From assembly GCA_905178155.1 (NCBI GenBank), contig CAJINV010000005.1, positions 736,564-800,563 on the forward strand: a stretch of 64,000 nt of DNA. The letters are read 5' to 3'. The DNA is from Amoebophrya sp. A120 (taxonomy: Eukaryota; Protista; Dinoflagellata). The notes below the pieces were generated by a model, which was given only the letters and a program-made list of their open reading frames with translations, did no database searches and was not told the origin of the DNA. Shown here one piece after another: positions 1,342-60,472 of this stretch; positions within the stretch are counted from its first letter, which is position 1, and every line of letters starts with the position of its first letter. The translations under genes were made by a program, and so were the position numbers.

Positions 1342-3966
1342 CTACTCATGCACAGCTTCAGAGGTGATCTTTTTCCCATCGCCAAAATTGTTCCCGTCGC
1401 GGTAGGACCGCAGGTTTTTCGGGAGCAGCTTATCCATGTCGAATGTTGATGCTTCCTCCTCGTCCCCGCGACCAGTTTCTCGTCCCGCCTTTATTCCAGC
1501 TGTAACTTCGTCTCCGACTAGACTTTTCGGTAGCCTTGCCAACGGAAAATTCTTCTTCGAGGGAACTAAAAATAATGTCGGGGGTAGCATCCGAAAATGC
1601 CGGTTCATCAACAGGGGCTTCATCGAATCCGACAGCGTCAGCTCGCAGCGCTGCCGTCTCTGCTGGGGCTTTTTCACAATCTCCAGCCACCGCTCCTTCA
1701 CCTCCCGCGCCGGCCGCTCACAGTGGTTGCTGATGTAGATCCAAGGGTCCCCGAAGTTTACGTCCCAATAGTGGTATTCTGTTGACACTCGTATCGTACT
1801 TGTAGTCATCGATTTAGCAGCTGCATTGAAGATTACACACAATAATTCCGAAGTTGAGAAAACTTTCTACTGCCGTTATTTTGTACGTAGACTACGTACG
1901 TACGAGGATGGTTTTGCAATGCATAAGTCGCACGACGCTTTTAGCGCGTCGTCCATCTCGTCCGTCCAGGGAAGTCCCTCTTTCGCGTACTTGCGGCCGG
2001 CAAACACAGAAAGCTGGTTCTCGGAATACACTTCTTTGGGAAACATGCCGTGGTTAAATTCGGTCAGAAAATGGATCAACTTCCTATAACCTGCTCAGGT
2101 GTTACAATCTCAAACGTTACCAATAGAATCTGGAACCTGCCTTGCATGCAGAGAATGAGGAACGTACAGAGTCTTGCGCTTTTCGCAATACAAATTTCGC
2201 CAGATGATTCTAGTGCGGTTTGGCACTCCAGAACTTGTCATGCGCAACCCTGTGCGAGTTGGCTAGATCATACACTTGCTTCTTGCAGCACAAAATCCAA
2301 ATTCTATTGTAACAGTTGAGATTGTAATGTCTGAGTGGGTCATACTTCCGCCGCTGCGCACCGGTCAGCCCCGGGATGCGCATCACCTTTTTTTGTCAGA
2401 TATCATAGTTTCCTACGCAGGGGCTACTTGTCGTTTTTTACCGTGCTCCAGTAGTTCTTAGGCCTATTGAATGGTAAAGGTGTAGACCAGGGCCCCTGGG
2501 ACCAGGGCCCCCAGGACCAGGGCCCCCAGGACCAGGGCCCCTAGGACCAGGGCCCCTAGGGGCTGGGGCCCTTACGGACTGGGGCCCCTACGGACTGGGG
2601 CCCCAGTCGTGTCTCAGAATCTGGCGTCCCGGAATCTGGTGTGCCGGCGTCTGGATCTGGAAGAGTTGGGGCGTCCCTCTACGTACAAAAAAAGCACAGC
2701 TCGACTTTCATGGTGACAATTTGAGATGTCTCTCGTTAGCACTTTGAGCTGCATCCCTGTCCACTCAAGCAGTGCTTTTGCTGGGAAACATTTCGAATAC
2801 AAACGGCGCCCGTCGCATTGTAAATAGATCTGGGTCTGCACAACTAAGAACTTGTGACGCGTGTCGAGGAATTATATAGAAAGCGAAAGAGATGCTCTGG
2901 GTAGTCAGCAGACTGCGTCACGTATTACGTGTGGCCTGCCTTCTTCCACCTCCTGGCCCGATGCTAGGACTTACATGACACGCATACTTGGTGGCCCAGA
3001 TACGCTGGCAGACAGCTCCGGTTCCGGCCGCGCCTCGCCGTGTGCCAGATTTTTCCGGGACGCCGTTCAGTCCGTAGGGGCCCCGGTCCGTAGGGGCCCT
3101 GGTCCTGGGGGGCCTGGTCCTGGGGGCCCTGGTCCCAGGGGCCCTGGTCTGAGCAGGGGCCCTGGTCTACCCGGATACCCTATTGAATACCCGATGCTCC
3201 TACCATCGTTCACCCGAAGGAGCAGCGCAGAATCTGGATCTGTCTCGAGGGAGTACTTTTATTGATTCGCGTACTACTTGCACCCAACGCAAGTGGTTGT
3301 AACTCAGGTTTCAAAACTATGACTATCGAGTTCGAGGACATATTAGTACGACGAAAATATTTTTAAACTTGTCTATACCTCTTTCTGATCCATGGAGGCG
3401 AAGTCTGCCCAAGACCCGTGCGGGGGGTCGAACAATGCTGCCACCTCTTCCAACTGATTCTCATCCTCCTTGAACAGGTCTGGGATGGCTTTCAGGAACC
3501 GCCGCACGTCCCAGCCTTCGGGCGGCGGCTTTGCGTATTCCCGTCGCACCGCGGACACTTCGGCCCGGGACAGCTCCTGCTTTTTCTCGGTAAGCCGCCG
3601 CTTGAACGCATGCACGTCCAAATACTGCTTTGGGTAGCGAACCCGAGGGTCGACCTCCGACTGCTTCGGATATTCCACGGTGGCAAAGAACCTGGTTGCA
3701 CGGGTGGTACACCTTGTCGTCCGGGCCGCTCGCGATAGCACAGGACAGCGTTTATCTGATACCGGTCGCCTAGTTGTACTTGTACGGTCAACATCAAAGC
3801 CACATGAAGATGGCGTCGCAAAGGCGGAGGACGTAGCCCGGGTGCAGTTTGGCAAACGGGGGATCAAACGTGGTGGACAAACATAGCGGCCTCGATAATG
3901 GAAAGGTCCACTGCTTGACGAGGAGCAGGAAGACGACGAGACGCCCAAACTAGTGCCCGCTCGCAT
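1342..3966 (-). CDS. IGR/SAM-like plus Myb-like protein, probably mitochondrial (FYV4/mS41-like); multi-exon
   Basis: Spliced reading ...WDVRRFLKAIP...WADFASMDQKE|VMRIPGLTGAQRRK|LIHFLTEFNHG...PWTDEMDDALKASCD|YWDVNFGDPWIYISNHCERPAREVKERW; Arg/Ser-rich presequence-like N-terminus; one GT-AG intron and two introners. Confidence 0.6.
1775..1925. mobile_element. Decayed TIR introner (family E-like)
   Basis: TAT...ATA termini; TSD agtgg/agtcg; removal gives in-frame CD|YWD. Confidence 0.65.
2085..2344. mobile_element. TIR introner (family G-like)
   Basis: ~50-bp imperfect TIR; perfect TSD cttcc; in-frame join RRK|LIH. Confidence 0.9.
2473..3179. mobile_element. Non-autonomous Mutator/foldback-like element inside a GT-AG intron
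   Basis: 9-bp TSD ctattgaat (2464-2472, 3180-3188); GGTA...TACC ends; long inverted arms built of ggaccagggcccc tandem units. Confidence 0.8.
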
Positions 3967-5930: not shown

Positions 5931-6013
5931 CGTACCACGACACTGCAAAAGACGACCGGGCAATTCCGTAATTCCATTGGTTGTTCTTCCTTCTTCCGTG
6001 AGAACTTCGCGCT

Positions 6014-9385: not shown

Positions 9386-12366
9386 TCACCCGGGCGTGAC
9401 GTATGAACTGCAAAAGTATCGTACTCGTATAAATGCATTACAAATTTCCTCAGCATGAGAAATCAAATTTGTAATGCAGATTTGACTTGGAAACAAGATT
9501 TGTAATGCAAGACCTGCATTAGCATTTGTACGAGTACGATACTTTTGCACAGGATATGACGTTTTCCACGACCATTTCCCCGGCTTCGCCAAACCTATGG
9601 ATGTGTCAGAATCGAAATGGACAAAATCGAAACATTTGTGATGCATAAAATGTAGACAATAGACACCCGTAATAGCTCGTAGTACCCTGTCATCTTCCAC
9701 CAAGTGAAACATCAATGGTGAGGTGCCCAGGGCCCCTGGAGGTGAGAAACGAGGGTGGCACCTATAGTCGACCATACCAAATGGTCAACCAGGAAATGAG
9801 GAAGTGGGTAAGGAACACAAATGTCCCGGGATAACAAAAACTGAATATCCCGCACAACCTCTGCCAACCACTGCCCTCGATTTCACAAATGAAAAGGCTA
9901 AGAGCCAATTCAACTCCGGCTACTCTTCCCGAAGCAAGCTCAACCACCTCCCACCAAGAGCGAGCAACGGGGCAATGCCCTGAGGGACCGTAGAGAATCT
10001 CCCCAACGCAGACGTCATGTGGCTTCAGCTCTTAGAGGCCGGCTGACGAATGAAAACGCACACCTCCGGCTGCAGCGGCACAGACCAGAGGGGCAGGGGC
10101 ATAGGAAGAATCGAACCGCACATCCAACTCGACCCAGGTAACCCAGAGAACCCATGAAATGTAGAGCAGTGAAGGCCTGCATTGGGGAGCAGGCATATGA
10201 GACCGATTGCAAGCCTGTTTAGGGGTATGCAATGTGATGCCAGAGTAGCATGACAGGAGCAGTTTTCTTCGCCCAAACAGCATGACAGACTGGATTTGGG
10301 TGCTCCCGAAATTTGATATGCGCCACTTGGAAACTGAGTCTCCAACTGGCATAGATTTTGCGCATCACAAATTTTTGGATTTTGTCAATTTTGATTCTGA
10401 CACTTCCATAAAAGCCCTCCGCCACGTAGTCCACCCCCAGTGAGAACCACCAACCGAGATCGTGCGGACTGTATCAAGGTGAAAAATGCCTCCACCCCCG
10501 AACTTGGGAGCATTTGTATTGCAAACCTTTTCAAATGAAACATTCGCTCTCTGGCACTTATCAGCATCACAGATTCCCAATCGTGAATAGCAAACATTTG
10601 CATTGCAAAAGACCCCAGCGAGAGTGGCGCTTGTCATGCGAGCGATGCGATACACGCCTAGAGTCTTTATCAGAAAGATTCATACTTCTTTTATGCATGA
10701 CAAAAAGTTTGCATTATTTGGAAACTTCGCATCACAAGTTTTTGCGACTTTGGTTGTGGGGGCATTTTTTCCTTGTGATAGACTGCCCACCCGGTTCACC
10801 TCCTTCATCAGGGACCCAAAGGTTTTGCTGAACCCGCTGTGCTCCATCTCCTGCGGGCGGCAGAGGAGTTCCAGATGGGTGACCGGTTTGCACAGGTAGT
10901 TGTACTCCTTTTCCATCAGGTCGACGAACGTCTTGTCCGGATTCTCGCGGTCGAAGTAGGCCTCATTCTCCACCCAAATGCGCGGCCGGTCCTTCGTCAG
11001 CAGCTGCTTTGCGCCTTTCACCACCGCGATCTCCATGAATTCCACGTCGATCTTCATGAAGTTAATTTTCTGGTCCGGCTTCAGCAACTTTTTCTGCCTC
11101 AGCGCTTCGATCGCGGTGTCCAGCGTCTTCACATCCACCAACTCCTTCCGCTCCTCCGCCTGGTACGCCAGGTGCTGCTGCTTCGCCTCCGCGCCCACCT
11201 TGTACTGTTCGGCCACGCGCATGGCGCTGGGGACGGACAACTTGGTCAAGTCCGGCTGGTACAATTCTAAGTGGTCGTTCGACTCCCCAATCGCATGCTG
11301 GAACGTGAAGCAGTTGGTCAGCCCGTTCAACGCGACGTTCGCGGTGAGCTGCTGAAACAGCAGTCGGAAGGGCTCGAACGCGAACACTTTCCCGCTCACC
11401 CCCACTTTCTCGGCCAACGGCACGGTGAACCCGCCCACGTTCGCGCCGATGTCCAATACCACGTCGCCCTCGTTCAGAAACGACTGCATCGCGTACGACT
11501 GCGCCAGGTCGAACGTGCCCCAGTGCCGCACCGCGTTGCCCACATTCATGTCCATGGCCGGGGCGAGGAAGTGGTGGGGCACGTCCCTTTCGATTTTCCC
11601 CAGGCAGCACGTGTCATAAGTGAAAAAATCGTCGAAGCAACCGGAAGCGGGGCCGGGTTCGCAACAAGATCGGACGTCCAGATGCGTGCCCCCCGGCCAG
11701 CACTTGTCTTGCCACGTTCGGGAGATCGGCGGCGTACGGTGGTTGGAAGTGAGAACGGTCGGGAAATGGACGCCACCGACCTGCGAATGCGATAGATTGA
11801 TTTTGCGATAAAAAATTAAGTAGCTTTTTCGTGTAAGTACGTATCTCTCACTCTAATTATTCATGGGGTACCCGTACCTGTGGTCTTCACCAACATGGAT
11901 GCAAGAGCAGCATACAATCGACCTTTACTTGTACACTGGGATCGAGAGGACCCTCCAACACCTTATGCTTATCCATTCTGGCTATGACTATGTGTTCTTA
12001 AACCAGAAAAAGTACCGCCACGCTCTTCCGATCCTTTCCCTCATCCAACTTCCCATTTTTCAACTCTTCCACGCAATTCGTGTAGAAATTGATGAAGTCC
12101 CCGCTCGTCCACGCGGAACCGAAGTTCTGCTGCGTGAACTCCGCGGCGCGGACCAAATCCAGGCAGTTTTCGCGACTGAGAAAAAACTGTTCCGGGTGGT
12201 CCAAGATCGCCTTGGCTCGATCTTGCCACGCGTTGTGGAGCGGAGCGTCAGCCAGCACCGACTCGACTGGGGACAGGCAGAGAATCTGTTGCACTTGTTT
12301 CGCGAACAGGAAAAACGCGGTGGCAAAAGGTGGCCTTGACGGTCGCTTCCTGCTCGGGAAAGCCAT
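9386..12366 (-). CDS. FkbM-family SAM-dependent methyltransferase (Methyltransf_21) with Cys-rich N-terminal region
   Basis: VVLDIGANVGGFT, VFAFEP and FMKIDVEFMEIAVVKGA motifs; C-terminus rebuilt across three introners (GS|PHDLGWWFSLGVDYVAEGF|GEAGEMVVENV|TPG*); link to exon 11998-12366 is inferred. Confidence 0.85.
9402..9556. mobile_element. TIR introner family E
   Basis: TIR tatgaactgcaaaagtatcgtactcgta; perfect TSD tgacg; 155 bp. Confidence 0.92.
9596..10410. mobile_element. TIR introner family C carrying a ~500-bp nested insertion
   Basis: TIR tatggatgtgtcagaatc/gattctgacacttccata; TSD aaacc/aaagc; other C copies are 308 bp. Confidence 0.85.
9657..10152. mobile_element. Nested insertion of unknown type
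   Basis: Flanked by cat(a/g)aaatgtaga duplication at 9644-9656 and 10153-10165. Confidence 0.6.
10472..10780. mobile_element. TIR introner family D
   Basis: Perfect TSD gactg; TIR tatcaaggtgaaaaatgcc/ggcattttttccttgtgata. Confidence 0.92.
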
Positions 12367-13144: not shown

Positions 13145-15629
13145 CTACAATTCCTTTCGACTGCTTCTCCTCTTCCCGTACATAATGTCCTCCATGGCCG
13201 CAATGTCCGTCACGTTCAGTGGCGGCAGATCCTTGACCGCCACTGCCTCCTTCACGTGCTGCGGGTCCTTGCATCCCGTCAGCGGCTGCCCGCCGCAGCT
13301 GTCTGGATCGAAAGGAAAAAATCCCCCGTAACCCCTCCTACCGAATAGTGGGAAATAATTCGTGCTGCCGACGTGTAGTAGTCGTGTGCGTGTACTACAG
13401 TACAAATCAGATCTGTATTGCTGCAAGGCACTTCAGTACTTGGTTGGTGCTAGTTCGCCTGTGCAGCCGCGAAACGACTAGCTATTTGTTCTTTTGACAG
13501 ACAGGTGCTCTGCTATCTCCCGAAAAGAAACGGGCTGCGACGAAAAGCGGCCCTCGCCGGTCCTTTATCGTTTATGAAAATAGAATGACGCGTGCGCTTC
13601 TCAAGGTTTATGAAAATAGAAAACATCTTCATGACAATGACTTAGACTTTCTTGCGTACACAGAACTAAAATCCGGCATCACAAATTTCCTTTCCGATGA
13701 GGGGTGGGGGCACTTTGCCTCGCAGTAGTCCAGGATGTATCGGTAAATGATCTGTGCGGGGGTCGCCTGCAGCCGCTGAGCGAGGCTCTGGACGGGTGGG
13801 GAGCCCATCAGGCCAGGGTTGGCGGTCAGAGTCCAGAAGGATTGGTACCTGATTCCAAAAAATGGATTTCGATTTGGTTTCATTCTTCAACAAGCTCGGA
13901 GTTCCGTTCGTTGCAATGTGCAGTCGAAGATCTAGATGAAAAACGATACACCAAAACGACATGCTCGTGTTGAGAAGCATCAATCACAATCTCATCAAAC
14001 GTAACCGAGAATTCTTGGGGAACAATTGATTGATTTGCAATAACAGAAAAATTGCGAACTAGTCGTAGTACCGTATCCCGTGTTCCTGGCAAAAGCTGCG
14101 TAACTCCCGGTCAAAACCGGTGTCGCTATAAAAGCGGTTCTGCAGCACGATGGGCTTGTGCTTGGCCTCCTTGAAGAGGTACTGGAAAAAATCCAGATCG
14201 TAGATGTTCGAAGCGCCGAGAAAACGCAGCTTTGTCCTGTGTAAAAAGCGATAAGCAGTACCCATACTAAGTACCAAATACATAGTCAAATAAATTGGAA
14301 ATTTCTATGATATTTCATCCCTATTTATACAAGTCAGCATGTTGTAGATGTTCTTGCGCATGTTGACAAGGTCGGGTCCGTAGTGTAGTAGCATGAGAAG
14401 TTTCGTCCGGGAGATTAGAGCACAACCAATATTCGTACACAAGTCGTGGAAATAATGCGTGCCCCCTCGTCCTCTCATGGTGCCCTTACGTATCAGAAAC
14501 ACACTCCGCTACTGCTTGCTTCTGAACATGCAAATTTGCATGACAAATCTGGCGGAGATGTGAGCACTACTACGTTTCTACACAGGATAACCTTGCCCTC
14601 GTCGACCGCGGTTTCCATCGCTCGCCACGCTGTCATGGTCAAATCCGCTCTCCCTTTCACCGGGCCGTGTAGCACGAGCGAGTCGATCACTTCGATGCCG
14701 AGGTTCTTCCGGCTCACCTCTACCGACTGCGCCACCTGCTCGTCCAGCGGCGCATTTTTGTCGTAGGGGATCCGGTTTTTGTCCTGTCCGTCCAAACTGG
14801 TAAACTTCGTCTGAATCCACACGTCCTCCCGAGAACAGAGCTTTTCCTCGAATACCTCGCGCAGAGCCTTCCCGAAAATATCATGTGAAATTCTGATACC
14901 CATACTCTACGCGGGCTGTTACCGACACTAAGACTCGCATGGGCCGCAGGAATATCTTCTGAAAGGAAGTGGAACGCATCTCCTCTGCCGAGACAGAAAA
15001 GATTTCCGGTCGTGTTTATTGTGCTGTGGAATCCTTTCTACAAATGCTGTAAGTACACAGTAACAGGGTATAAAAACAGGTGGCCGCTTCGCGACGCGCC
15101 CGTGGTCCTTCTCCTTCCTACGCAACAATGCCCTGCGGAAAGAAATAACTCGTCATGCGTGCTGCCTCCCCATCATTCAAACTTTTGGGTTTGTGTTGTC
15201 GAGTTCCGAACTGGAGTATGGGTATCGGCTGATTTTGCTCAGAATAGACTAGATGTTCTTGGTAGTGCTTCGGCTGGCAGGCTGTGTCTACCGCCCGGAA
15301 CCCGGCCTTGTATCCCACGAAAAAAGTGTTACAGTTACACATTTGTTGTCAATTCAGCAACACAAATTTCTCTGCATGAGGGAGAAAACTTGCAATGCAG
15401 AAATCCAAAGGGAATAAAACACCTATGAAACGAAGCTCCTATGCATATCCGGCATGACAGCGCTGGTCTCTCTTGCTTGGCCTGCAACACAATGTGCAAC
15501 TGTAACACTTTTTTCCCAGCATAACTTGAAGGCTTTCTTCACTAAGTCCGTAGTTCTATCCTCTTTCCACGCGGTTCCGTACAGCATCGCAATCTCGCGA
15601 AAAGGGATTTTGCACACACCGGGGATCAT
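13145..15629 (-). CDS. Aldo-keto reductase family protein
   Basis: LYGTAWK, GFRAVDTA, REDVWIQTKF, IDSLVLHGP, GK|VRFLGASN, VLQNRF and TPAQIIYRY motifs; four introners and one GT-AG intron. Confidence 0.92.
13306..13727. mobile_element. Strongly decayed TIR introner (B/D-like)
   Basis: TSD gtctg/gtcca; residual gaaaaaatccccc and gggggcactttg ends; in-frame LD|SCGGQPLTG. Confidence 0.55.
14233..14589. mobile_element. Decayed TIR introner (family I)
   Basis: t(g/a)tcctgtgta TIR; TSD agctt/acctt; restores GKVRFLGASN. Confidence 0.8.
14879..15246. mobile_element. Decayed TIR introner
   Basis: Inverted gatacccatactc; TSD gaaaa/gacta; restores EHLV|GKAL. Confidence 0.75.
15311..15523. mobile_element. 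TIR introner family F
   Basis: Inverted aaaaaagtgttacagtt; TSD ccttg/acttg; restores AFK(A/S)GFR. Confidence 0.88.
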
Positions 15630-44200: not shown

Positions 44201-47200
44201 CTGAAAACGAGCCGGACCAAGCCGTCCCGCAGTGTCGGCGTCCTCCCGTCGATGATCCCGGGGATTTTTCTCTTGTCGTACCGTTGCGTTTCGAAAGCTA
44301 GATTCGGCACGGTTTTCAGCTCCACAAAGTTGTCGTACACCAAAGACAAAAACCGCTTGAAGGAGATCGGGCCTTCGTCGAGGTTCAGTACCCGCTTCAA
44401 CCACAGCCCTAAACCCCGGAAAACTTCCTCCTCCTCCTTTTCTCGCTCGAGACGGGACGCCCTTCCTGTGTCAACGATGTCTAAAGATTCATCATTCTCA
44501 TCGTCGGGCCTGAGGAAGATGTCCAGTGTTCTCTGCAGGTAGCTGTCAGAAGCGACCACCTCGGTGCAGCTGAAGTGAGGTACGGAGGTAGAAGTACTCC
44601 CATGAAGATCTTCCGGCTTATTTGCAGAAGATTCTGACTCGGCGCGGGCGGACGAAGACTCTTCATGTAGTGCCGTCGTACTTGTGGTCGTTGTTGATGT
44701 ACTTCTTGTGGATATAATTTCTGGTTCTTTCAACACATCGCTTTTGCTTTTCCCAGCTATCTGTATCTTTTTCCCATACTCCTCCTCCCGGCTGAGTTGC
44801 TGTGCAAACACCGGGTCGAATACCGTGTGCAGCCGCAAAGTCGCCGCTGGGTCGTGCACCTTGGATGGGTAGACCTCTTCGACGCTGTTCGCCCGATCGA
44901 TCTTCGCTTTTTCCTCCAGGCTGGGTATCACATTGATTTTCTTTGCAAAATCGCTGGCGGGGCGGCTCATCGCGTAGCGGTAGTGGTGGATGCTCAAATC
45001 GGCCATGCGACTGATGTGCAACTGCGTCCCGACCCGGCCGCGCATGCACCGCTGCCCGACCAGCAGCATCTCCCCGGGGCGCACGGCGGTGCTCTTCATG
45101 CTTTTGCGGCTCCCCGCGGCATTGGCCTCCTTGATCGGGCGGTACTCATCCGGAGCAATGACGGTGAGGCTCTGGAGAAATTCGCCTGCCAATTTGTTTC
45201 CGTTCTCTAACTTTTCCAGGCCGATCTGGTGCACGCGGTCGCGGCTGAGATGGCATACACCGCCCTGGGTTATATTGGTACTACTTACGCCGTCATGGAA
45301 CATCCTCTCCGGATCTTCAAAAACAAACCTCGGCACGCCGTCCTCGTGCGTCGTTTCGGAGAGGATATTTGCTTTTTCGCCCCCCGTCGTCTGCATCACC
45401 GTTTGGACGGAATACGGCTCGCCGAATTCCCGCTTCATCATGTTCAGCAGCATGTGTCCGTGCGGGAAACTGCTTCCAGTCTTGCTGCCAAACTTCTCCA
45501 GACTCGTTTTTTCATCCTCTACTTTCGGCCCACGGGGAAACACGAATTCCCGCACCGGCGTTTTCGGGATCGGCAGGCGGAAGGACCAGCGGTCCCAGGG
45601 CGTTGGCCAGACTTCCGACACGACGTCAAAGTCGGTCAGAACCTTGGTCTCCGCGTCCGGAATTTGCTCCACTTTCTCCACAAACAGCGGCTGCAAGTCA
45701 TCGGGGCCGCCGTAGGTGATCTCCTGGATGTAGACGCCGGAGGTGACGGGCCGAGGGAGGGTAATGGCGGACTCGAAACCTATTTCTTGGTGCGGTTGGG
45801 CGGCTGAAGATGCAGCTCTTGATGCCACGTTGACAGCAGGAGCGTCATTACTAGTAGAGCCTGAAAAGACTCCTGGGGGAATCTTGCACTCCGCCGTTTT
45901 CCTCTCCGCGTACCCGACGGGCGTGGTGCCTATCAAATGTAAAAATGTCTGGGTCTGGAAGGTTGAAGCTTGTGATGCTAATTCTGGATCATACAAAAAT
46001 CTGTGTTGCAAGAATGCCAAAAGTTGCCCGCTTTTGACGAAGTTGAGAGGAAGTTTCTCATGCAGGATAGGCATGATAGGGATCCCGCAGAATCTGTCAT
46101 GTTAGGTTCTGCATTGCAGATGACATGGATCATGGAAAATCTGCATGACAAGTCTCGGAATCTTCCAGACCCAGACATTTTTGCATTTGATAGTGCCGAA
46201 GTAGGTGCGAAAGCGCTCGTGAAAAGTAGTTGGGCGGGTTTGTGCAGTAGTTTTTATCACAAGGAAAAATCCCCCCTCCCCATATCAAACGGAAGTTTCT
46301 GACGCTGGATCTGCGTATACAAATCAGGTTTGTCTTGCAGTAGAGGACTGCAGGCTCCTGCCAAGCCTGAGTAGAGAGGTTTTGGCCTAGGCACTTAGCA
46401 TGAGAAACGTCTATGCTGTAGGCCCAACAGCATCACAAACCGCCTGCATAATGCGGCAGAGCCTGCGGAGTTGTCTTCTTGCACGACAGACGTGATTTGT
46501 GGTCTCAAATCAGCAAGACAAATTTTCGGAAACATACCTTTTCGATATGGGGAGGGGGGATTTTTCCTCTCAATAGTTTCAGCTACGACTTTATTTTTTG
46601 TGCTTTGATCATTTTCATCCCACGTGTACCGGCTCCCCGGGACCATTGCCTCGTCCAGATCCGTGTACAGAAGCCAGTCCACGTGGCGATTCCGATAGAG
46701 GCAGGCCGTGTTCACGAGTCCCTGCGCGGCGACCAGGTCCCACTCCATAGACGCGCTGTTGATCCGGTCTTCACAGTACAGAGTCATCAGCTCCGGCGCC
46801 ACGCGGTAGAGCGAGAAGCTCTCGACCTTAGTCATTTTGCTTTGCTGATGGTTCATCTGTGGCCGAAGATTTTTCGTTTTCGAATCACTCGACGTGCTGT
46901 CATTGTCAACATCATGTGGAAGTTCATGGGACGCGGCTGCGTCATCTTCCCCTAAGATCTCTCGCAGCTTTTCCAGGTCCGGCCTGGCCGTGTCCGGCGG
47001 ACCGAGCTCGTACATGGAGATCTGCCGGGGGGCGATTTGCGCTTTCTGCACTTCCGTCCACTGGTTCAGCAACACTCCCTGCTGCTGGAAAATGCCCGCT
47101 CTGCGGAGTCCGAACAACCCTGGCAGGCAGGTGCCGAACTCCAAGTGCTGCTTGTCAATTATACTCTTCGGACTAGTCAACATGCTGCCTTTTCTACTAC

Positions 47201-50200
47201 TAGCGGATGTCGTTTGATGTTCCAATTCCATCGCTCGGCTCCATAAAACGTCAAAGGCTGGGCGGAAAACGTCAGCAGCGGTTTTGATCACCACCTTCTT
47301 CCTCTTTCTTGCATCTCCCTCGTCTAATAATCCAGGTTCGTCTGGTGGTTCTGCTATCCGGCATACCGGCACAGCGAACAGGGTGGTCATCCGGTCGCTC
47401 ATCATGCCGAAGTTGTTCTGGTCCAACACTTTCGACAGGTAGTTCGGATCCGTTTCCTTGAGCTTCTGCTTCACAATGTTCAACTTTTCCAGCTGATGCA
47501 GAAAGAGCTTCACGTGGTGGCCCTGCACCCCACTGTATTCAAACGTCAGGCTGAAGGAGTCGATGGAGAGAAACTGCGTGTCTTTCTTCGCCAATTTTCG
47601 CGCGATTTCCGAGGTTTTGGTGGAGATAACGCACTGGATCACGAACCCGGGGAGACTGGCTCGGGGAAAGAACCTGCGCATTTGCACCTCGTTGACGAAA
47701 GATTCGTGTTTGATGACCGAGCACGCCGTGTTCTCCAGCCACGCCCGGTGGTAGCCTGCACCGTAGAGCAATTCGCACCGGGAGGGGGTTTCGATGGACA
47801 GTTGCGCCGCACCGTTCACGGAACGAAGGGCGAATTCGAGAACAAATTTATTTTCGGAGGGTGGTGAAGTGGTCTCTACAACTCCTGCGTCGGCAGAAGC
47901 TGTCGGAACTACTCTCCTCCTTCTCAAATCTACGACCTTACCGACTCCCAGCCCCAGCAGGATCAGCTCGCTCGGGTAGCCTTCCACCGGCAGGCGCAAC
48001 GGGCCACCACACAAGCGGTACTGGTCCCAGAGGACGCAGCTTTCGAAGTTGTGGTCGAGATTGGCTTTGGCAAGATTTTCATCCGATTTGACCATGCTGA
48101 CCGCCTGCCCGAGGAGTTGGTCTGAAACTACCGGACACGTGGTCATCACCTCATCGTTGCGCAGGACGCTTTGCAGGGCGAAGTCGTCATCTTCGTTCTT
48201 GCTCACCTCCCGCTGACTCTTTCTATTTGCTGACGGTGGTGGATCTGGATGTGTGCCTTTTTGTGCTGCTGAAATGTTGTCGTGTTTCTCGTCCTCGACA
48301 TTGATACTTGAAGTTTTCGTTTGCCTTCGCCTTCGCCTTCTCCACGCCGCCACCGTTTTCTTGTCGAGAATGATATCCCGGACGGCAACTCTGCTAATGT
48401 TCGGATTCCCGGCGGGCTATGAACTGCAAAAGTATGCATCGTACTCGTATAAATGCATTACAAATTTTCTCAGCATGAGAAATAAAATTTGTAATGCTGA
48501 TACAACTTAAAGGAAAGATTTGTGATGCTAAAACAACCGCACCGACATTGCCATTGTCCATTATCACTGGGGAAGCAAGCCTCCGCAGGCGCTGGAGCGG
48601 CATAGGGTCAGAACCGCGAAAACATCGCGAGTATTTCTTCATCCCCGGGCACTCTTATATTTTTCTGACCATACTTTGCGCTCACAACTGTAATAGAAGC
48701 AGACAGGGAATCCGTGATTGGATTACACAGACCCCCAGAAACCTGCTATACAATGAGATCAATGTATGGAAGCTAACAGACCCAAGCCGTATGGTGATCT
48801 CGTAGATCTACAGCAAGGGCGTTTTAGAGCTTCCACGCAGTGCAACTACAGGACATAGATGCGGAAATTGAAGAACTGCGGCCCTTTCTGTGGACTGGGG
48901 GGGACGAGAGACCTTTGCCGGGCTCTGGCGTGTCCTTGCCGCTGGTCTATCCGCCGCGCCACTCGTTCCTTCTACCACTTCGCTGGCTGTCGCCGCTGGG
49001 GCAAATGCTTGGGGCCGAGGAATTTGCAGCAACGCTTCTGTTGTTGAGTGCCCCTACACATCTGTTGTTGAGTGCTACGGGAGTAAGCCGCCTGTTGGGC
49101 TTACCGCTGAAAATTCCTCTAGCCCTGCCGCATTTGAGGAGACTCCTACCGTTCCATTCCGCTCTGTGGTAGCCGACTCTCGCCTCCCCGGATTGCGGTT
49201 GTACGGCACGACTACTATTTACCGCTCCTCAGGACACCCGCAGGACGGTAAACGGCGACGCCGCGAACATGGAGAAGTTGCTGCCCATGCCCGTCAGGCT
49301 AAGCGAGGACCTTGCTGCTGCGCAGGATGGTGCGTGGACGACTGCTGCAGGATTCAGGCACCGTGTCCGGGCGGGGAGGAGGTCATTTTTAGGAGGGGTA
49401 CTCGGCAGCACGGGGCGCTGGTTCTGAGATCTCGGCTAGTGTAAAGGGGGGCCTGAGATCTAGTAGGCTACTATAAAGGGAGGCACAGCGGACCCGCCAC
49501 GCTCGGGTGTTTATCTACTTCTTTCGAAACTCCTCTTCAGGGAGTCGGGGGAGATACCGACGTGGTGTCAGTGGTGGTAAAATGATTGTGAATTATCGCA
49601 TCTTCTACTCTACGGCATAGCTCCCCCTATTCTAGATTTGTTGGATCTCAGGCAACAAGGAAAGATTTGTGATGCAAGACTTGCATTTATACGAATACGA
49701 TACTTTTGCACAGGATACGGGCACGGTTTTGCGCATGATCGAATCGAACAGCCCGACCGTATCAAATGCAAATATGTCTGGGTCTGGAAGAATCCAGGCT
49801 TCTCATGCTTGTCTGGCATGACAAAAAAGTTTGTGATGCGTGTCCAAGAAGAGACCCTTTTCCGCCCTTTTGCCTGTCATGCAAAAACGCAGTTTCTCAT
49901 GCGAAAAACGTAACATAAAGGACTGCAGATATTTCTCATGCTTGGCTGCGCATTACAGAGCATTCACTATTCCCAACACAGCATCACAAGTTTCCAGACC
50001 CAGACATTTTTGCATTTCATAGACCGCCTGCGCGGCCAATTCAAACGTATGGCTCCAGTCGTCGTCGTGCCGGGATGTTTTTGCTGCGCTCCCCCCCGCC
50101 ATGACCAAAGCGTTTAGTCTCTCCCTGCGGAAGAAGCTGTTGCCGAGAATCTGGGAAAAGAACAACATCAGCCACTGTAGCAGATTCAGCATGCTGGCAG

Positions 50201-53200
50201 AGGAACCTAAGTGGAGCGTGGTGGGAGAGGTGAGAATTTTCTCCTGAACGGCGAATACTTCTGGGTTAACAGCTGCACCAGCTGCAGCTACCCGGCGTAG
50301 TTTTTCTTTACTTCTTGGGACAAGCTTCCTTTTCTCCGCAGCAGCAGGTTCCTCTTGCTGTGTGCTTGAAGAGTCTCCTTTCGAAGACTGGTTCTTGTCG
50401 ACGCTCGTTTCAGTTTCTGCAACAAGTGCTGGCTTCGCTGGATTGATCTTTTTCTCGCTGGTCACACTGCGCTTCTTCCGCGGCCGGATGGAGGCCTTGT
50501 ATTTGGACTGCGAAGTAGGTTGATCCGGAGCTGTGGTACGGTCATTTTGCAACGTGTCGGGTTGTTCCACTTCCTGTTCGTGTTCCTTCAGTGTTGTCGA
50601 GTCATCTGAGCGTAGAAGTTCTCCATCTTCTACAAATTCGCCATGATGCACATCAGCCGGATTATATTTCTGCAATTTCTGCAAATCGATGCCCTTTTTC
50701 ATCTCACTCTGCCGCAACAGTGCCGGAATGCAGACCTGGTCGCGCCATTTCTGGTAGTGGGCGAACGCCTTGTCTTTCATGGCTATGTAGGCGAAGAGGA
50801 ACCACGCCATCCCGGCTGCCTCCAGCAAAACCAGGGCTCTGCTCAAGCACTGTGCGTGAATCGCACTTGCCAGGTCGCCACCGATCGCGAGCTCGACCAC
50901 CTGGGCTGCTGGAGATTCTTCTTCGGGCTTGTACAGGTACTGCACCTGGGTTTCGTCGCTTAAGCAGTCGAACAGCTCTTGTTGTTCCTGGCCCCTGGGA
51001 CGAGATGAAATTCTTGTAGAGGAGGAGTAATCTTCTTCACTCGAAGATTTATTCTCTTCGAGAAACTCCCGTAGCGCTTCCTCTGGATCCAGCTTAATAT
51101 TCTTTCGGTTTTTTGCGAAGTCGGCAAAGGAAAATGATGCCCTCTCGGTTTTGATGTGGTCCTCGTCCTCAGGACTTGTTGTGGAAGTTCCGACAGATCC
51201 TCGGCGTTGTTGTTCCTTGCGCAACTTACACCCCTTTCCGGTCACCACCGCGCCGACGTCCTTGGTGACGACGAGCCGGCTAATCACGTTTACCCGGTCC
51301 TCCACTTCCTGCTGTGGCATCAATTTGGATGGAGGCGGCAAGACCAGCAGTCGGTCCATGATCTTTTCGTACATATGGAAGTGTCAGATTTGAAATCGAC
51401 AAAGTTGAAATAACCTGTAATGCATAAAATCGATACCAGTTGGAAGCCTAATTTCCAAGCGGTGCATGACAAATTTCGGGACCGTCCAAATCCAGTTTGT
51501 GATGCTGTTTAGGGTCAGAAGGCGTCTTTTGCCATGCTACTTTAGCAGCTCTATTTCAAACCCTAAACAGGCTCACAATCGGCCTCACTTGCCATCCCGG
51601 CAAGACAGGCACTCCATGCCTTGCATTTTATGCATGACAAATCATTTCAACTTTGTCGATTTCAATCCTGACGCTTCCATAGTACAGGTACTGCCCGTAC
51701 AAGTCGTAGCTGTAGGGCATGTAGATGAACAGGTACATATCGAAAGGAAACATCCCCCCTCCCCATATCAAAACGATATTTCTAATGCTGGATTTGTGTA
51801 CACAAATCAGGTTTGTATTGCAGAGAGGCATTGCGGCCAGATCCCCAAGCTAGGTAGGGGCGTAGGGGTCTAGTTGTTCAGCATGGCAAACGGCTCAGCT
51901 TTAGGCCCAACAGCATGACAAATCGCTTCCATAATGGGGCGGAAGCTTCTGCCCTTGTCTTCTTGCAAGACAGAGGTGATTTGTGACCTCAAATCAGCAA
52001 CACAAATTTTCGGCAACATACCTTTTCGATATGGGAAGGGGGTATTTTTCCTTTTGATAGTACAGCGGCAGCATGAACTCGAACTCCGGCATCGTGTACT
52101 GCATCGAGCGGAACACCACCCTATCAACTGTAAAAATGTCTGGGTCTGGAAGAATTCATGTTTGTCATGCTTGTCTGGCATGACTCTTAAATCTATCTGT
52201 CATGCACGTTACCCAAGAGCTCCGTTTTTCTGTGATGCAGAAGCGCAGTTTGTCATGCAGAATAGGCAACACCTAGAAGCTCAGAAACTTGTCATGCTGA
52301 GCCAGCATCTGTAGCCTCATCATGAGACGCCACCCAGCATCACAAGTTTCCACCAGACCCAGACATTTTTACATTTGATACACCCCCGCCAGTGGGCACT
52401 TCGCGTTGGTCGCCAGTTCGAAGTAGTCAAACACCCGCGTGATTTTGTCCCAGAACCGGAACTATAAAATGCAAAAATGTCGGGGTCTGGAACATTCTAA
52501 ACTTGTGACGCTGTCTCTGGATTCTAAAAAAATTTGTATTGCAAGACCAGCAAGAGGACTCCACTTTGTGCTACGCGGAGAGGGCATTTCTCATGCGGTA
52601 GAGGTATCGCAAAGCCCTCTAAAAATCTGTGATGCTACGGCATGCATCACAGACGTCATGGCTCATGGAAAATATGCATGACAAATCTGAGAATCTTCCA
52701 GACACAGACATTTTTGCATTTGATAGGAACCGCTCGTCTTGCAGAACTTTCTTCGGGTGGGCGAGGAGAGACTCCCGCAAGTCCGCCACCGCGAATTCCT
52801 CCAAGCCTAAATTGTGAAATGTTTCGTTCCTAAAAAACGTGCTCGTCAATTGCGGCAGTCTTTCGCCTGGCCCGAACGGTTGGTGCCCCTGGTGGTCCGC
52901 CCAGTGCTCGAACGCCGGCCAATCGCCGCCCTGCGCGGCCGCGGCCAGCACTAGTGGGAACGGAAAATCGGTGAGGCAAGCGAAAGGGTCGACCATCGAT
53001 TCGTCCGCATTGCCATTTTCGTCGACTTCCAGTCTCATAGCGCGGACGTTGCTGTAGTCGTAAAGGTGCTTCTTTATTGCGCCCTGCCCATTGCGGAGAA
53101 ACGGGTTTTGGGTGGTCAGAGAATCTTGTATCTCTCTTCCTAAATTTCTGATATCCCCTATTTTCTTCTGCACCGCCAAAAACCCAAAGGTTTTCCCAGA

Positions 53201-54463
53201 CCGGACCAAGTCGGTGGCGTCGACGAGGCGAATCGCTTGCCAGAGTTTCGTGTTGCGGTTCGTGGTCGCTGTCGGGCAGGAGAATGTTGATAGTACTTCT
53301 GATGGCAGTGGCACTTCTTCAAAGGAAGAGGATTTTGTTATTTCTAGCGCGGGCTTTACGTCCACGCTGAGGTAAAAGTGCATATTGTACATGTCGGCGA
53401 AGAATTTGAGTAGGTGGTGGAGTTTCTTCCGTAAGTGCTCTGCGAGTACCGGGTCTACTTGATCTTCTTGCCGCTGGTCAGAATTCATCTCGGTACTAGA
53501 AGTTGTCCTTGTCGTGCCACTAGCACCACCAGCTGAAGTTTCTATCCCGCAGCTCGCTGTGTAGACGGGCAAGACGCCAACGAATTTGGGAAAGATGAAC
53601 TTGTGCCTGACAGAACTTTGCAAAACATCCTCCACGTCTTCCACTTGCGTCCTATTCTGGCCCCGGTTTGGCGACTGTTGGCTAAGAACAAATTTGTGCC
53701 GGAGCTCGCCCCAATCATCTGCTGGGGACAAGGATCTTCCGTGTTCACCACCTCCACGACCGCCGTGGTGCCGGTGTGCTCGTAGTTGCTGCTGCAGTTC
53801 TTCTTCCGTGTGGATTGGAACCGCTTTTGAGTAGGCGTACGTGGTTCCCTGGAAAACCGCATTCTCTTCCCCTTCCCGGTGGAAGGCATTGAAGACGTAG
53901 GCAGTGGCCGCTTCGAGAAGCGTTTTGTAGTAGGCATACTCTTGCACCGCGGGATCGGTAGTTGCATGTTGTAGTCCTGGCGCTGCTCCAGCTCCTCCAC
54001 GTCCGCCTGCCGACGGAGTATAATTTTCATTGTCACCTTCGGCATCAAGCTCTCCCCCTGCCTCTGCAGCGAGCGAAACCACGAACACCTCCGGGTGCTG
54101 GGACAAGAATTGTTGGGATGGTTCTCCGTCATGATTGATAAGCACTCCGCTCTGAGCCACGGACGATGTGGCGTGGAAGAACTCGGTTGGACTTTCTTCA
54201 TGGGCGTGCCTCACGCCGCTCTGCCCGTCTGCAAACAGCTGCTCCTTTTCGAAACGAAGTAACAGCGCCTTTGTGGCTTTCGCATGAACGTAAAAATGCA
54301 GAGAAGCCACATATTGTTCATAGAGACACAACACATCGAGACAAAATAATGCAGAAAGTAGACATCCAATTTGTACGTGCACCAATGTCAAGGATCTGCT
54401 CAGGGATCGAAACAAAGAAACCGACTTTCCGCACGAGTAGGGCTTGACACATTTACGCGTCAT
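41216..54463 (-). CDS. Giant (~2849 aa) protein containing a GT92/DUF23-like glycosyltransferase motif
   Basis: 12 introners plus GT-AG intron 41445-41650; spliced length 8550 nt = 2850 codons; motifs AQGLVNTACLYRNRHVDWLLYTDLDEAMVP and SIHHYRY; N-terminal hydrophobic segment. Confidence 0.8.
41766..42073. mobile_element. TIR introner family C
   Basis: Perfect TSD gtcag; 308 bp. Confidence 0.95.
42154..42458. mobile_element. TIR introner family D
   Basis: TSD tgcga/cgcga; reverse orientation relative to the 10472 copy. Confidence 0.92.
43515..43774. mobile_element. TIR introner family A2
   Basis: TSD ttcgc/ttctc; 260 bp. Confidence 0.92.
43819..44080. mobile_element. TIR introner family A1
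   Basis: TSD tactc/tattc; 262 bp; closely similar to the reverse complement of 5669-5930. Confidence 0.95.
45931..46192. mobile_element. TIR introner family A1
   Basis: Perfect TSD gtgcc; 262 bp. Confidence 0.95.
46255..46575. mobile_element. TIR introner family B
   Basis: TSD gtttt/gtttc; 321 bp. Confidence 0.93.
48418..49717. mobile_element. TIR introner family E expanded to 1300 bp by a nested insertion
   Basis: Perfect TSD cgggc; the two halves match 9402-9556. Confidence 0.9.
48529..49656. mobile_element. Nested ~1.13-kb insertion with 19-bp TSD (retroposon-like)
   Basis: aaggaaagatttgtgatgc duplicated at 48510-48528 and 49657-49675. Confidence 0.8.
49760..50021. mobile_element. TIR introner family A2
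   Basis: Perfect TSD gaccg; 262 bp. Confidence 0.95.
51374..51681. mobile_element. TIR introner family C
   Basis: Perfect TSD gtaca; 308 bp. Confidence 0.95.
51738..52059. mobile_element. TIR introner family B
   Basis: Perfect TSD gtaca; 322 bp. Confidence 0.95.
52122..52380. mobile_element. TIR introner family A2
   Basis: Perfect TSD caccc; 259 bp. Confidence 0.93.
52463..52725. mobile_element. TIR introner family A1
   Basis: Perfect TSD ggaac; 263 bp. Confidence 0.93.
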
Positions 54464-55078
54464 ACTGAGTTGTAGACCTACCTGGTTTCTGCAGCCTTGG
54501 GAGCTCTTTTGAGGATATACGACAAGAATCAGATCATAGGGTAGTTAGGCACGAGACGCAACAATTTCAATTTATTTGATTGGGAAGAAGCAATTCCCAG
54601 TCCGTACCCCTCTCAGCACACCAAACCCTTAGCCAAAGACTCATACTTGCATTTTCTGCAGTGCGGTAAGTCGTGGTAACATTTGAATGCTACAAAATAT
54701 CAAAAACAAAAATGGCATACAAGCCGCGCCGAGATGGTTGTAAACTGCCGATCCTACGACCTAAAACGGCCGAGACACGGTTTATTTACTTAAATCAGAG
54801 AAAAAGGCGCGAAAGTGAGAAGAGCGGTCTGACGGTGGCAGGTGCTCGGGTTTCCCGAAGAAGCGGCTCGGTACCCACGGCCGAGGAGAAACTAGGCATA
54901 CAAATGGTCCACTGAAAGACCGGCGGCTCAGCAGCCTGGATACGAAGTGGCCTAGGATCAACTTGTTGAACAACGACAAACTTATTCCCTATTTCTAATA
55001 TCAATCTCCACTCAAGACCAGTCATCATCACAGAAGATCTTCAAAACTTTCTTTCATTTCAAGCCCTTATGGTGTCTT

Positions 55079-57929: not shown

Positions 57930-60472
57930 TTAGAATTGAGCAAAGGGATTGTTGTGGTTGTTTGTGTATGCCCTTCTCTTCGGAGCAGCAGGCGCACCAC
58001 TGTGATAGTACACAGCACCGCCACGACTCGACGCTGCTGCTGCCCCGCCCGCGCGGTCCCGCGAGCGGGATCGAGATCGGGAATAGGAGCGGTCATCTTC
58101 ATCACTTTGGTCGGCGTGAAACGGGTTATTTGCAATATGACTGCTGCCCTTGCGATTTCTTCTAGTGCGCTGCTGGTTCTTTCGATTGGTCGATGAGCCT
58201 GGGTTGACATCAAAGGGTCCCTGCGCATACTGGACGTTGCTTTCGCTTTCCTCGGCGCGATTGTCGTAGTGACTTTGCTCCTCTACCACAAGGTTGTTGC
58301 TTCCGTTTCCAACCTCGTCTTGCTCCCTACTCGTTTCCAGCTCTGACTCGATCTCGTCCGCATCCGAAACAAATCGCTTCGTCTTGTACCCGTCATTCGC
58401 AATATCAAGTGTAAAAATGTCTGGGTCTGGATACTTGTAATGCTGCGTTGGGAATAGTGAATGCTCTGTGATGCACAGGCAAGCATGAGAACAAGTATCT
58501 GCGCTTCTTTGTGTTGCGTTTTTCGCATGACAAACTGCGTTTTTGCATGACAGGCAAAAGGGGCTCTTCTTGCACACGCATCACAAACTTTTTGGTCATG
58601 CCAGACAAGCATGACAAATCTCAAAATCTTCCAGACCCAGACAACATTTTTGCATTTGATACGCAAACCCCATCGGCAATCTTTGGGGCGACCCCGCGTT
58701 TTTCAGGATGCCACCGGGTTGACGGTTTTTCACGCGGCTTGAGGAGGAAGCGGTGGCCGCGCGACCTGGTTTTTTGAGTTGTTAGTTTGTGTTAATACAA
58801 AGATAGTTGTGCTGCTGATGTCAGTGCGGCCACGCCATGTCTTCTGCAAATGTCAAACTCAATTGCTCCATCTGTACTTATTTAATTAAAGTATTCGCAT
58901 CAAGAATAAATTAGAAAGTGACAACACTAATTCTACGCCCAAGAGCGGGAGCTGTTTACCAGTTACTATCTGACGAGTTCGACTATCTTCTCTGTAATCG
59001 CGATCGGGATAGCGCACTTGATGTCGACGCACCAAGGTGGACGTGGACGTGATTATAGGGGAAGAACCGTCTATAATACCTCCTACTCCACCCACCCCGA
59101 ACGAACTGAGGTCCTCAGCACTCTCGTCCCTGTCCTCGTTGGTTCCCATTTGCGGAGGTGCCCAGTCTCTTAAGCGCATCAAGCATTTGACATGCCGTTT
59201 TTCCTCCTCCCGCTTTTCCGCGCTGTCCAACCCGTACCCATCCGCCTCTTCAATGGCCACCCCGTTTTTCTTGTCCTCCGCCCTCTTCGCGTAGTCCCGT
59301 CGGATGCGGTTGTAGGATCGGGTCGTGAGCAAGGACAGCTCCTCCGACATGTCCAGGAACGCGGCCACCTTTTCCGCGTCGTCCGCGATCGTTTCGCCGA
59401 AGAAGGGATGCAAGTTGTGGTCGTCTGGGTGGGCCAGGGGTAGCTGTCTCTCTTCATCCATGGGCAGGGCCGTCCGGGCGACGACGTTTCGCGTCTCAAT
59501 GATCTGGTCCAGCGCGTCGACGCAATCCACCAGGTGCCGCTTCTTACACTTGTTCCTCTTCCCATTCTATGGATTGCAAAAGTGTCTGGGTCTGGATCTG
59601 GAAGAATGCAGGAGTCTGTCATGCAGATTTTGCATGACCCATGAGGTCTGTGATGCATGCCCTAGCATCAGAGATTTTGCGAGGGCTTTCTGATGCTCAT
59701 ACTGCATGAGAAATGCCCTATCCGCGTAGCACAAATTACACCTCTTTTGCTGTTCATGCAATACAGTTTCTATGTAGATTCCAAAAGTAGCATCACAAGT
59801 TGTATCCTTCCAGACCCAGACATTTTTACATTTGATACATTCGCCCGCGCGTGACTCGTGTCCCAGTACCGGAAGACCTTCCGCAGGGCGATATCAAACG
59901 GCAAAATCCCCCTTCCCCATATCGAAACGAAATTTCTGATGCTGGATTTGGATACACAAATCAGATTTGTGTTGCAGAAAGGCATTGCGGCCAGATCCCC
60001 AGGCTAGGTGGGGGTGTATGGGTCTAGTTGCTCAGCATGGCAAACGGCCCCCCTTTAGGCCCAACGGCATGACAAATCGCCTCCATAGTCTGGCGGAAGC
60101 TTTTGCCCTTGTCTTCTTGCAAGACAAATGTGATTTGTGACCTCAAATCAGCAATACAAATTTCCGGAGACATACCTTTTCAATGTGGGGAGGGGGGGGT
60201 TTTTCCTCTCAATAGGCGACGCCGCTGTCCACCTGCCACCCGTTCGGTTTGCGGCAGCACAAGCAGCGCGGACTCCAGTGATGCGAGTTTAACACGTTCA
60301 CACCTTCGTCCTCCGGCGGGGGCAGTTGCATCACCCAGGGCGCAACGGAGTATGCCTTTTCTTCCTCGGTAAGGAGCCGGTCCAGGTCGCGGGACTGGTT
60401 TACTATGGAGCAAATATCCCGCCAGCACTGGGTCTTGCCGCTCTTCTTGTTGCTCGAGGAGGAGCCCGGCAT
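57930..60472 (-). CDS. Cys/His (Zn-finger-like) protein with RS-rich tail; paralog of 61373-62761
   Basis: WSPRCLCCRKPNGW...VA|LRKVFRYWDTSHARAN|GKRNKCKKRH; three introners plus GT-AG intron 58766-58959; RSRSRSR tail. Confidence 0.8.
58403..58661. mobile_element. TIR introner family A2
   Basis: Perfect TSD cgcaa; 259 bp. Confidence 0.95.
59568..59837. mobile_element. TIR introner family A1
   Basis: Perfect TSD cattc; 270 bp. Confidence 0.93.
59892..60214. mobile_element. TIR introner family B
   Basis: Perfect TSD ggcga; 323 bp. Confidence 0.95.

Follow-up and report, generated by a model that had tools for sequence, protein, structure and literature searches.

Introner elements in the window

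The window (the whole 64,000-nucleotide stretch of DNA that was analysed) holds 44 inverted-repeat elements that read TAT...ATA between 5-bp target site duplications (TSDs), together making up 14,039 bases or 22% of its length. Window exons match annotated Amoebophrya sp. A120 proteins at 98-100% identity, confirming the host genus named in a preliminary description of the locus, and the elements are those described as introners in A120 by Farhat et al. 2021 (PMC7789003). Forty-three of the 44 lie within minus-strand reading frames and the remaining one appears to be outside coding sequence (Table 1), which fits the coding location first proposed. The aldo-keto reductase, thioredoxin and Hint domains previously read from the restored frames were all confirmed by Pfam.

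Table 1. Inverted-repeat elements, canonical introns and host genes or frames in the window
Region	Strand	Gene or frame	Elements	Canonical introns
1775..2344	-	210-codon restored frame; open frame only	1775-1925, 2085-2344	
5669-5930		Single copy apparently outside coding sequence; 262 bp, exact TSD	5669-5930	
9402..10780	-	Near 3' end of 390-codon restored frame; open frame only	9402-9556, 9596-10410 (815 bp, contains ~500-bp insert), 10472-10780	
13148..15629	-	Aldo-keto reductase gene P0001	13306-13727, 14233-14589, 14879-15246, 15311-15523	13849-14071
16443..17864	-	Thioredoxin-domain gene P0026	16754-17163, 17473-17751	
19565..21014	-	Open frame only	19565-19881, 19926-20203, 20701-21014	
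26226..31871	-	Hint-module gene P0027, 792 aa	26364-26720, 26856-27142, 27897-28179, 28326-28620, 28670-29027, 29749-29957, 30014-30338, 30407-30646, 31034-31302	29055-29355, 30759-30943, 31494-31609
32587..36638	-	935-aa gene P0024	32805-32989, 33028-33389, 34021-34191, 34625-35005, 35403-35525	
41445..54544	-	2804-codon restored frame	41766-42073, 42154-42458, 43515-43774, 43819-44080, 45931-46192, 46255-46575, 48418-49717 (1300 bp, nested insert), 49760-50021, 51374-51681, 51738-52059, 52122-52380, 52463-52725	41445-41650
58403..60214	-		58403-58661, 59568-59837, 59892-60214	58766-59079

The total of 44 combines an inverted-repeat scan, relaxed scans and comparison with annotated proteins, in line with the at least 43 copies counted earlier, and the lengths are likewise 123-422 bp apart from two enlarged copies of 815 and 1300 bp. 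A scan that left the ends unspecified found 30 pairs of inverted repeats flanked by an exact 5-bp repeat, 19 with TA..TA ends, compared to 0-2 in five block shuffles. A profile scan of the window gave no further convincing whole elements, and the same scan missed 27897-28179; decayed copies beyond the 44 may remain uncounted.

The 5-bp TSD and TAT...ATA ends stood up to closer inspection, as the TSD is exact in 22 of 44 elements and matches at four or more of its five positions in 38. An exact 6-bp flanking repeat occurs in 0 of 42 window elements, and among 456 candidates in a related assembly exact repeats of 5 bp were found in 221, of 4 bp in 1 and of 6 bp in 1. The ends carry the inverted-repeat motif TAT, seven variable nucleotides and at least three A, with A at position 13 in 85 of 86 ends, and they fold together in 38 of 40 elements of up to 500 bp (counted without a shuffle control). 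In A25, introns start TT- and the repeats start TTA. By interior similarity, 42 elements divide into six multi-copy families (20 elements) and 22 singletons, and the 8-10 families of the preliminary description hold only as terminal classes. Near-full-length relatives of 24 of 42 window elements were found in related loci L001-L130, with no exon sequence common to the window and these loci. The window elements are short, non-autonomous MITE-type transposons with terminal inverted repeats (TIRs), a TSD of constant length and no coding capacity.

Elements are absent from RNA and protein

Direct support for removal was obtained for 27 of the 44 elements, 20 from annotated proteins and seven from RNA-type contigs, and the other 17 are supported by open frames only. 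The predicted loss of each element plus one TSD length was borne out by both sources. All 20 elements in the genes of four annotated proteins are missing from the protein products, and removal of the element plus 5 nt fits 20/20, while removal of the element plus 2 or plus 8 nt was rejected because it never fits (0/20). RNA-type contigs skip the element plus 5 nt at 41766, 42154, 43515, 43819, 48418, 49760 and 58403-58661, and contig gaps of 188, 39, 37 and 102 nt equal exactly the prediction from these seven elements plus two canonical introns. This evidence spans 41001-60600, takes junction sizes from contig pieces and presumes that the contig set is RNA; two raw RNA runs placed only 3 and 2 reads on the window. 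Removal also restores the 2804-codon frame across 11 elements counted as frame breaks, plus the last exon boundary, and a 946-codon frame across five. Taken alone, a crude frame test (n=42) favoured the additional 5 nt in 26 elements, tied in 3 and did not favour it in 13.

As first noted, most elements have no usable GT-AG pair, with one possible inside the TSD in only 2 of 44 (8 of 156 in the related assembly), and the GT/GC...AG ends of U2-type introns are not a property of the window elements. Six canonical GT-AG introns are also present, in four of the checked genes. Genome-wide, the non-canonical class accounts for 29,850 of 66,565 RNA-validated introns (45%, versus 35% canonical), so the claim that it is the "main" intron system is right in the sense of the largest class and not beyond it.

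The preliminary description had also raised removal from DNA, by life stage or template as with ciliate internal eliminated sequences, with transcripts then made from clean genes. TIRs with direct repeats resemble DNA excision substrates, the contigs are only guessed to be RNA, and clean DNA junctions could lie among 710 joints beyond those listed. However, the RNA-type contigs also lack canonical GT-AG introns and so act as spliced RNA, all eight listed pieces of a DNA-like run pass from exon into element ends at an even depth of about 42-46, and A120 introns were validated by RNA-seq against genomic DNA (Farhat et al. 2021, PMC7789003). We regard DNA-level removal as very improbable.

Introns appear to be cut at one position beside the hairpin

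Imperfect duplications make the cut position readable at 15 junctions, 12 called from annotated proteins with pipeline-made borders and three from RNA contig edges. A cut after TSD base 4 fits 15/15, compared to 11 for cuts 3 and 5 and 7 for cut 1, which suggests a single, fixed cut site next to the hairpin. At element 14233 a GT-AG pair is available at cut 3, yet the protein has V, which requires cut 4 or later, and the A25 orthologue P0002 agrees. Element 27897, whose TSD has decayed to 2/5, still loses the additional 5 nt and is cut at position 4 or later. In the cut-4 register the 3' dinucleotide is AG in 3 of 44 elements.

It is rather unlikely, in our estimate, that the cut instead varies within the TSD, for example as a mix of cuts 1 and 4, and that a small sample or the annotation creates the impression of a fixed register. 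For family 2, the borders annotated across the genome are symmetric (69% xT at the 5' end and 68% Ax at the 3' end), which looks like such a mix; we read it as aligner choice within perfect duplications, although it could be real. Since 3' Ax is equally enriched in family 2, we dropped Table S4 of Farhat et al., in which the nine top A120 classes are all xT-, as clean support for cut 4. The Fig. 3 legend of the same paper calls splice sites variable (PMC7789003), and testing the register by GC polarity in the relative gave mixed results (positions 2-3, 10:3 against; position 4, 3:0 for; position 5, 3:0 against). Against variation, cut 1 is incompatible with 8 of the 15 informative junctions (p about 0.004 if the two cuts were mixed 50:50), of which one was read from the edge of an RNA contig and two agree with the A25 orthologue, and a uniformly placed cut would fit all 15 with p about 1e-4.

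The 5' end is conserved on the sense strand

The sense-strand 5' TA is changed in 0/44 window elements and 0/156 in the related assembly, whereas the last two 3' bases are changed in 6/44 and 8/156, or 14/200 together (Fisher p=0.007 for the relative by itself and 1e-4 for both sets together). Such conservation tracks the transcribed strand, which would be unexpected for removal from DNA. Changes at the third base are T>C in 4/4 cases in the relative and 2/3 in the window. Because the 5' TA is kept and the cut falls after TSD base 4, the introns start N-U-A-Y, like the local canonical G-U-A-Y: all six canonical introns in window genes start GTAC or GTAT. With the cut-4 register assumed, the +2 U and +3 A of a U2-type 5' site are present in 200/200 elements. 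No invariant branch-point A was found in the relative (n=156), where a candidate A fused at -7 was weakened by changes in 2/156.

A hairpin-guided spliceosome as the likely removal route

We propose that removal of the elements is probably the work of a modified U2-type spliceosome, for which the terminal hairpin would serve as a ruler replacing G+1 and the 3' AG. Insertion, probably by a DDE transposase supplied in trans, duplicates the 5-bp target N1-N5, as observed, and the element plus 5 nt is lost from RNA and protein, as seen at 27 of 44. The predicted intron is N5-TAT...ATA-N1N2N3N4, beginning 1 nt before the hairpin and ending 4 nt after it, with a 5' end that would equal the canonical site save at +1 and whose TA is the one end statistically preserved. 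Paired TIRs would join the two ends and fix the 3' cut by distance, and U2/U5/U6 machinery would carry out catalysis, with U1 lost or diverged. A120 retains U2, U4, U5 and U6 as well as 83 of 89 spliceosomal proteins, and no U1 was detected (PMC7789003); Amoebophrya sp. Kv possesses U1, and its introns are of the GT/AG type. Exon insertion would be nearly harmless because an element supplies a TAT end whichever way round it inserts and its removal restores any 5-bp target, and this could account for the spread of the elements.

A less probable but serious alternative is that a separate, non-spliceosomal endonuclease and ligase identify the introns by their TIR hairpin, cutting 1 nt upstream and 4 nt downstream of it. 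The register is fixed relative to the hairpin independently of G+1 and AG, and the undetected U1 and the rarity of AG at cut 4 would also suit such enzymes. Nonconventional introns of Euglena need inverted repeats and may leave as circles, with non-spliceosomal factors suggested (PMC12501133). On the other hand, the preserved +2U, +3A and +4Y are the signal of A120's own canonical 5' sites, a purely symmetric hairpin cutter is not expected to preserve the sense 5' end alone, and the evidence from Fritillaria, as reviewed, favours a modified spliceosome (PMC11282704). A sequence-specific nuclease could also preserve the 5' TA, which counts against the spliceosomal reading.

Extending the spliceosomal reading to the genome, we lean towards the view that A120 processes tens of thousands of introns without G+1 and a 3' AG, reading only U+2 and A+3 and measuring the 3' cut 4 nt from the hairpin, that A25 likewise uses +2U and +3A, and that the published "no clear splicing signature" is an artefact of ambiguous alignment in TSDs. 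The register with its N-U-A-Y signal turns a seemingly rule-free class into a precise, testable code that tells where lariats should be sought and which bases to mutate, and guides how the roughly 30,000 ambiguous borders are re-annotated. A spliceosomal route, if correct, would indicate how far RNA structure can stand in for G+1 and the 3' AG, and why exons could be so densely occupied by a transposon.

Origin of the elements

Shared termini and TSD length make a single transposase lineage behind all families plausible. No Pfam transposase or integrase matched 21 frames from the enlarged copies and inserts, and no autonomous partner with the same ends was found in the 64-kb window plus 536 kb of related loci; Farhat et al. 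found no transposase in A120 (PMC7789003). Searches of the window against Rfam and of a TIR 30-mer against viral contigs gave no match. The suggested likeness to IS3EU holds for the TA..TA termini and not for membership: assignment to IS3EU/GingerRoot was rejected on the TSD, given the exact 6-bp repeats in 0/42 window elements and 1/456 in the relative.

Comparison with known systems

A120 introner elements and their non-GT-AG removal are already published (PMC7789003; PMC12130899 supplement), and the window elements are the same in having TAT, seven variable nucleotides and a run of A, direct repeats of 3-5 nt, a length of about 240 nt, RNA validation, no internal transposase and repetition in families. 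The supplement of Gozashti et al. 2025 (PMC12130899) gives "5-bp TSD, TA/TA Termini" for A120 introner Family 38. The published accounts leave the border variable or unknown; we add a single cut register and the strand-specific 5' TA constraint, which we did not find in the A120 introner literature examined and which make no difference in kind.

IS3EU/GingerRoot elements (PMC10045372, PMC12730594) have TA..TA termini in common with the window elements, and some window families start TATGG, as in fungal TAYGG..CCRTA, but the TSD is usually 6 bp there and 5 bp here. The Euglena introns (PMC12501133) are likewise non-GT-AG with TIRs and direct repeats and occur beside canonical introns; their terminal motifs are CAG/CTG, whereas the window introns keep canonical +2U and +3A at the 5' end. 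Fritillaria borealis (PMC13326754; review PMC11282704) also has MITE-derived introns with TIRs and TSDs and a changed spliceosome, with AG-AC/AG-AT ends, U1 present and U2AF duplicated, in contrast to the N-TA starts, free 3' end and undetected U1 of A120. The introners of Micromonas and Aureococcus (PMC11282704; PMC9860276) are likewise short non-autonomous DNA transposons turned introns that, as in A120, draw one splice site from the TSD, but they supply or co-opt GT/GC and AG, and the A120 elements require neither.

Inverted-repeat elements in the window

A scan of the window that made no assumption about element ends found 30 inverted-repeat pairs bordered by a perfectly matching 5-bp repeat, of which 19 had TA..TA ends. 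Five block-shuffled controls yielded 0 to 2 pairs. Relaxed scans brought the catalogue to 42 elements. Two further elements, whose duplications have decayed, emerged from comparison with annotated proteins, and the full set of 44 occupies 14,039 bases (22% of the window). All but two are 123-422 bp long, the others being 815 and 1300 bp, and the target duplication is exact in 22/44 and matches at 4/5 bases or better in 38/44. Of the 42 elements whose interiors were compared, 20 group into six multi-copy families and the other 22 are singletons. Host frames, once restored, run along the minus strand, and insertions occur in both orientations. Reading frames contain 43 of the 44 elements, compared with a coding share that was generously put at 0.63. 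Among elements up to 500 bp, 38/40 fold their ends together, a count made without a shuffle control. No clear target preference was seen apart from one shared 5-bp target. Unpaired TIR-like ends outside the catalogue are possibly decayed copies freed from splicing selection.

Three window exons match Amoebophrya sp. A120 proteins at 98, 100 and 100%, and a fourth protein is matched by a window exon at 100%. For A120, Farhat et al. (2021; PMC7789003) described introner elements whose inverted repeats open with TAT, followed by seven variable positions and a run of A, and which have direct repeats of 3-5 nt. Their count is 29,850 elements from 1,954 families, out of 66,565 introns validated by RNA (canonical, 35%). 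Among the 58 A120 rows of supplement file 8, Gozashti et al. (2025; PMC12130899) listed most families as TIR DNA elements of unknown superfamily. The preliminary description, of TIR transposons serving as non-GT-AG introns, therefore concerns a system that is already known.

Features of the window and of the related metagenome assembly (loci with the prefix L)
Position	Feature	Observation
2463-3188	Foldback element, unrelated	15-bp GC-rich unit arrays in both inverted arms; 10-bp flanking direct repeat
9596-10410	815-bp element, 59-nt TIRs	308-bp-family host plus ~500 bp bounded by a 13-bp imperfect repeat
14233-14589	Element, aldo-keto reductase gene	
14879-15246	Element, aldo-keto reductase gene	
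26226-31871	792-aa protein, C-terminal Hint module	Glycine/methionine-rich repeat region; split by 9 elements and 3 canonical introns
26856-27142	Element	Extra ATA between element end and downstream duplication; annotated cut exactly at base 4, yielding GT-AG; one serine apparently added
27897-28179	Element, Hint-module gene	
48510-49675	1128-bp insert in a 155-bp-family element	Bounded by an exact 19-bp direct repeat; DNA depth ~3x single copy; no Pfam match
51369-51373 / 51733-51737	Identical 5-bp target	At two neighbouring elements of different families, ~50 bp apart
58886-60595 and 61373-62794	Neighbouring genes, paralogue-like by eye	Elements in frame of the first, none in the second
21292, 40846, 41194, 54698, 57430	Unpaired TIR-like ends	
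L026:5001-5972, L058:3185-4229, L070:1547-2930	Enlarged copies (972-1384 bp)	Exact 5-bp duplications; transposase domain absent (Pfam)

Removal from RNA and protein

RNA evidence spans 41001-60600 only and comes from run X3, classed as RNA by automated guess. Between their genomic pieces, three X3 contigs leave gaps of 188, 39, 37 and 102 nt, equal to the genomic distance minus the element plus 5 nt at seven elements and minus two GT-AG introns. The 1300-bp nested copy is one of the seven, still skipped in its entirety with its 1128-bp insert. In the DNA-like run X1, the exon continues into the element ends in all 8 pieces listed; excision of the elements from DNA is very improbable. Raw RNA runs X9 and X10 placed just 3 and 2 reads and carry no weight either way.

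Removal of the element plus 5 nt fits all 20 elements in four annotated proteins, and deleting element plus 5 nt regained frames of 2804 and 946 codons. A crude frame test alone favoured +5 at 26/42 elements, with 3 tied and 13 not favouring it. A GT-AG pair is available inside the duplication at 2/44 elements. Removal of +2 or +8 nt was also tried in the four proteins and fitted 0/20.

Cut register

The cut position is unplaceable in perfect duplications and readable from the retained base in imperfect ones, which gave 15 informative junctions: three RNA contig edges and 12 of the 20 protein junctions, the other 8 being uninformative. Cutting behind base 4 of the duplication is consistent with 15/15; cuts 3 and 5 fit 11, cuts 1 and 2 fit 7 and cut 0 fits 3. 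At element 14233 a GT-AG pair is on offer and unused, and the resulting V is common to the orthologue in the second strain, A25, as is L-V at 14879. The rule persists at 27897 though its duplication is only 2/5, so the cut distance seems to be measured from the hairpin and not from the repeat. The remark that the commonest A120 repeats lie four bases upstream of the 5' end (PMC7789003) is compatible with this register.

Whether the cut instead varies within the duplication is partly a separate question from that of the machinery. Annotated family 2 borders (xT in 69% on the 5' side, Ax in 68% on the 3' side, genome-wide) and a mixed outcome of a GC-polarity test count against a fixed register, and the Fig. 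3 legend of Farhat et al. describes variable sites and an unknown border (PMC7789003). However, cut 4 fits every informative junction and cut 1 only 7, and we consider a variable cut unlikely.

Strand-specific 5' TA

In the window, the first two sense-strand bases, TA, are unchanged in 44/44 elements and the last two are changed in 6/44. A search with a TIR pattern yielded 130 loci of a single metagenome assembly, in which the window's families recur at best identities of 77-97%. In this relative, a profile blind to the terminal three bases gave 456 candidates, among which the 5-bp repeat is exact in 221; 256 had a good duplication, 246 of these were oriented and the coding strand was confident in 156. 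Applied to the confident window cases, which had also served to train it, the orientation method was correct in 35/35. None of the 156 shows a change in the 5' TA, and 8 show one in the two final 3' bases (p=0.007; window and relative pooled, p=1e-4). All 5' third-base changes in the relative were T to C (4/4), and the six canonical window introns start with GTAC (5) or GTAT (1) and end with CAG. Element-introns thus begin N-U-A-Y, in parallel with canonical G-U-A-Y. In A25, introns in seven rows of Table S4 all start TT and repeats start TTA (PMC7789003), so A25 introns would share +2U and +3A.

No account of a fixed register or strand asymmetry was found in the searched portions of the literature, which included passages of PMC11282704, PMC11453091, PMC9860276 and PMC13326754. 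The figures of Farhat et al. (Fig. 3, S19-S25), Roy et al. (2023, Curr Biol) or bioRxiv supplements may already show them.

Removal machinery

The simplest reading of element removal is an altered U2-type spliceosome, which we regard as probable. Such a spliceosome would accept any +1 base and would place the 3' cut 4 nt beyond the TIR hairpin. A120 keeps U2, U4, U5, U6 and most spliceosomal proteins, and Farhat et al. reported both U1 snRNA and transposase as undetected (PMC7789003). U1 is present in a related Amoebophrya whose introns are GT/AG (PMC12005148). A25 reportedly has a U1-70K homologue (PMC12787238), so U1 may have diverged rather than been lost. Cyanidioschyzon offers a precedent for U1-less splicing (10.64898/2026.05.17.725761). 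The main rival is a hairpin-guided nuclease and ligase like that discussed for Euglena (PMC12501133), which we hold as less likely.

Affinities of the elements

A Pfam search of 21 frames from enlarged copies and inserts found no transposase. In size, the 815-bp element matches families 38 and 196 of Gozashti et al. (808-811 bp). Their supplement labels family 38 'Ginger, 5-bp TSD, TA/TA Termini', contrary to their main text, which gives it no Ginger homology (PMC12130899). In behaviour the elements resemble MITEs of a putative integrase-type TIR transposon. They have TA..TA ends in common with IS3EU/GingerRoot, whereas the duplication is 5 bp here and usually 6 bp there (PMC10045372, PMC12730594).
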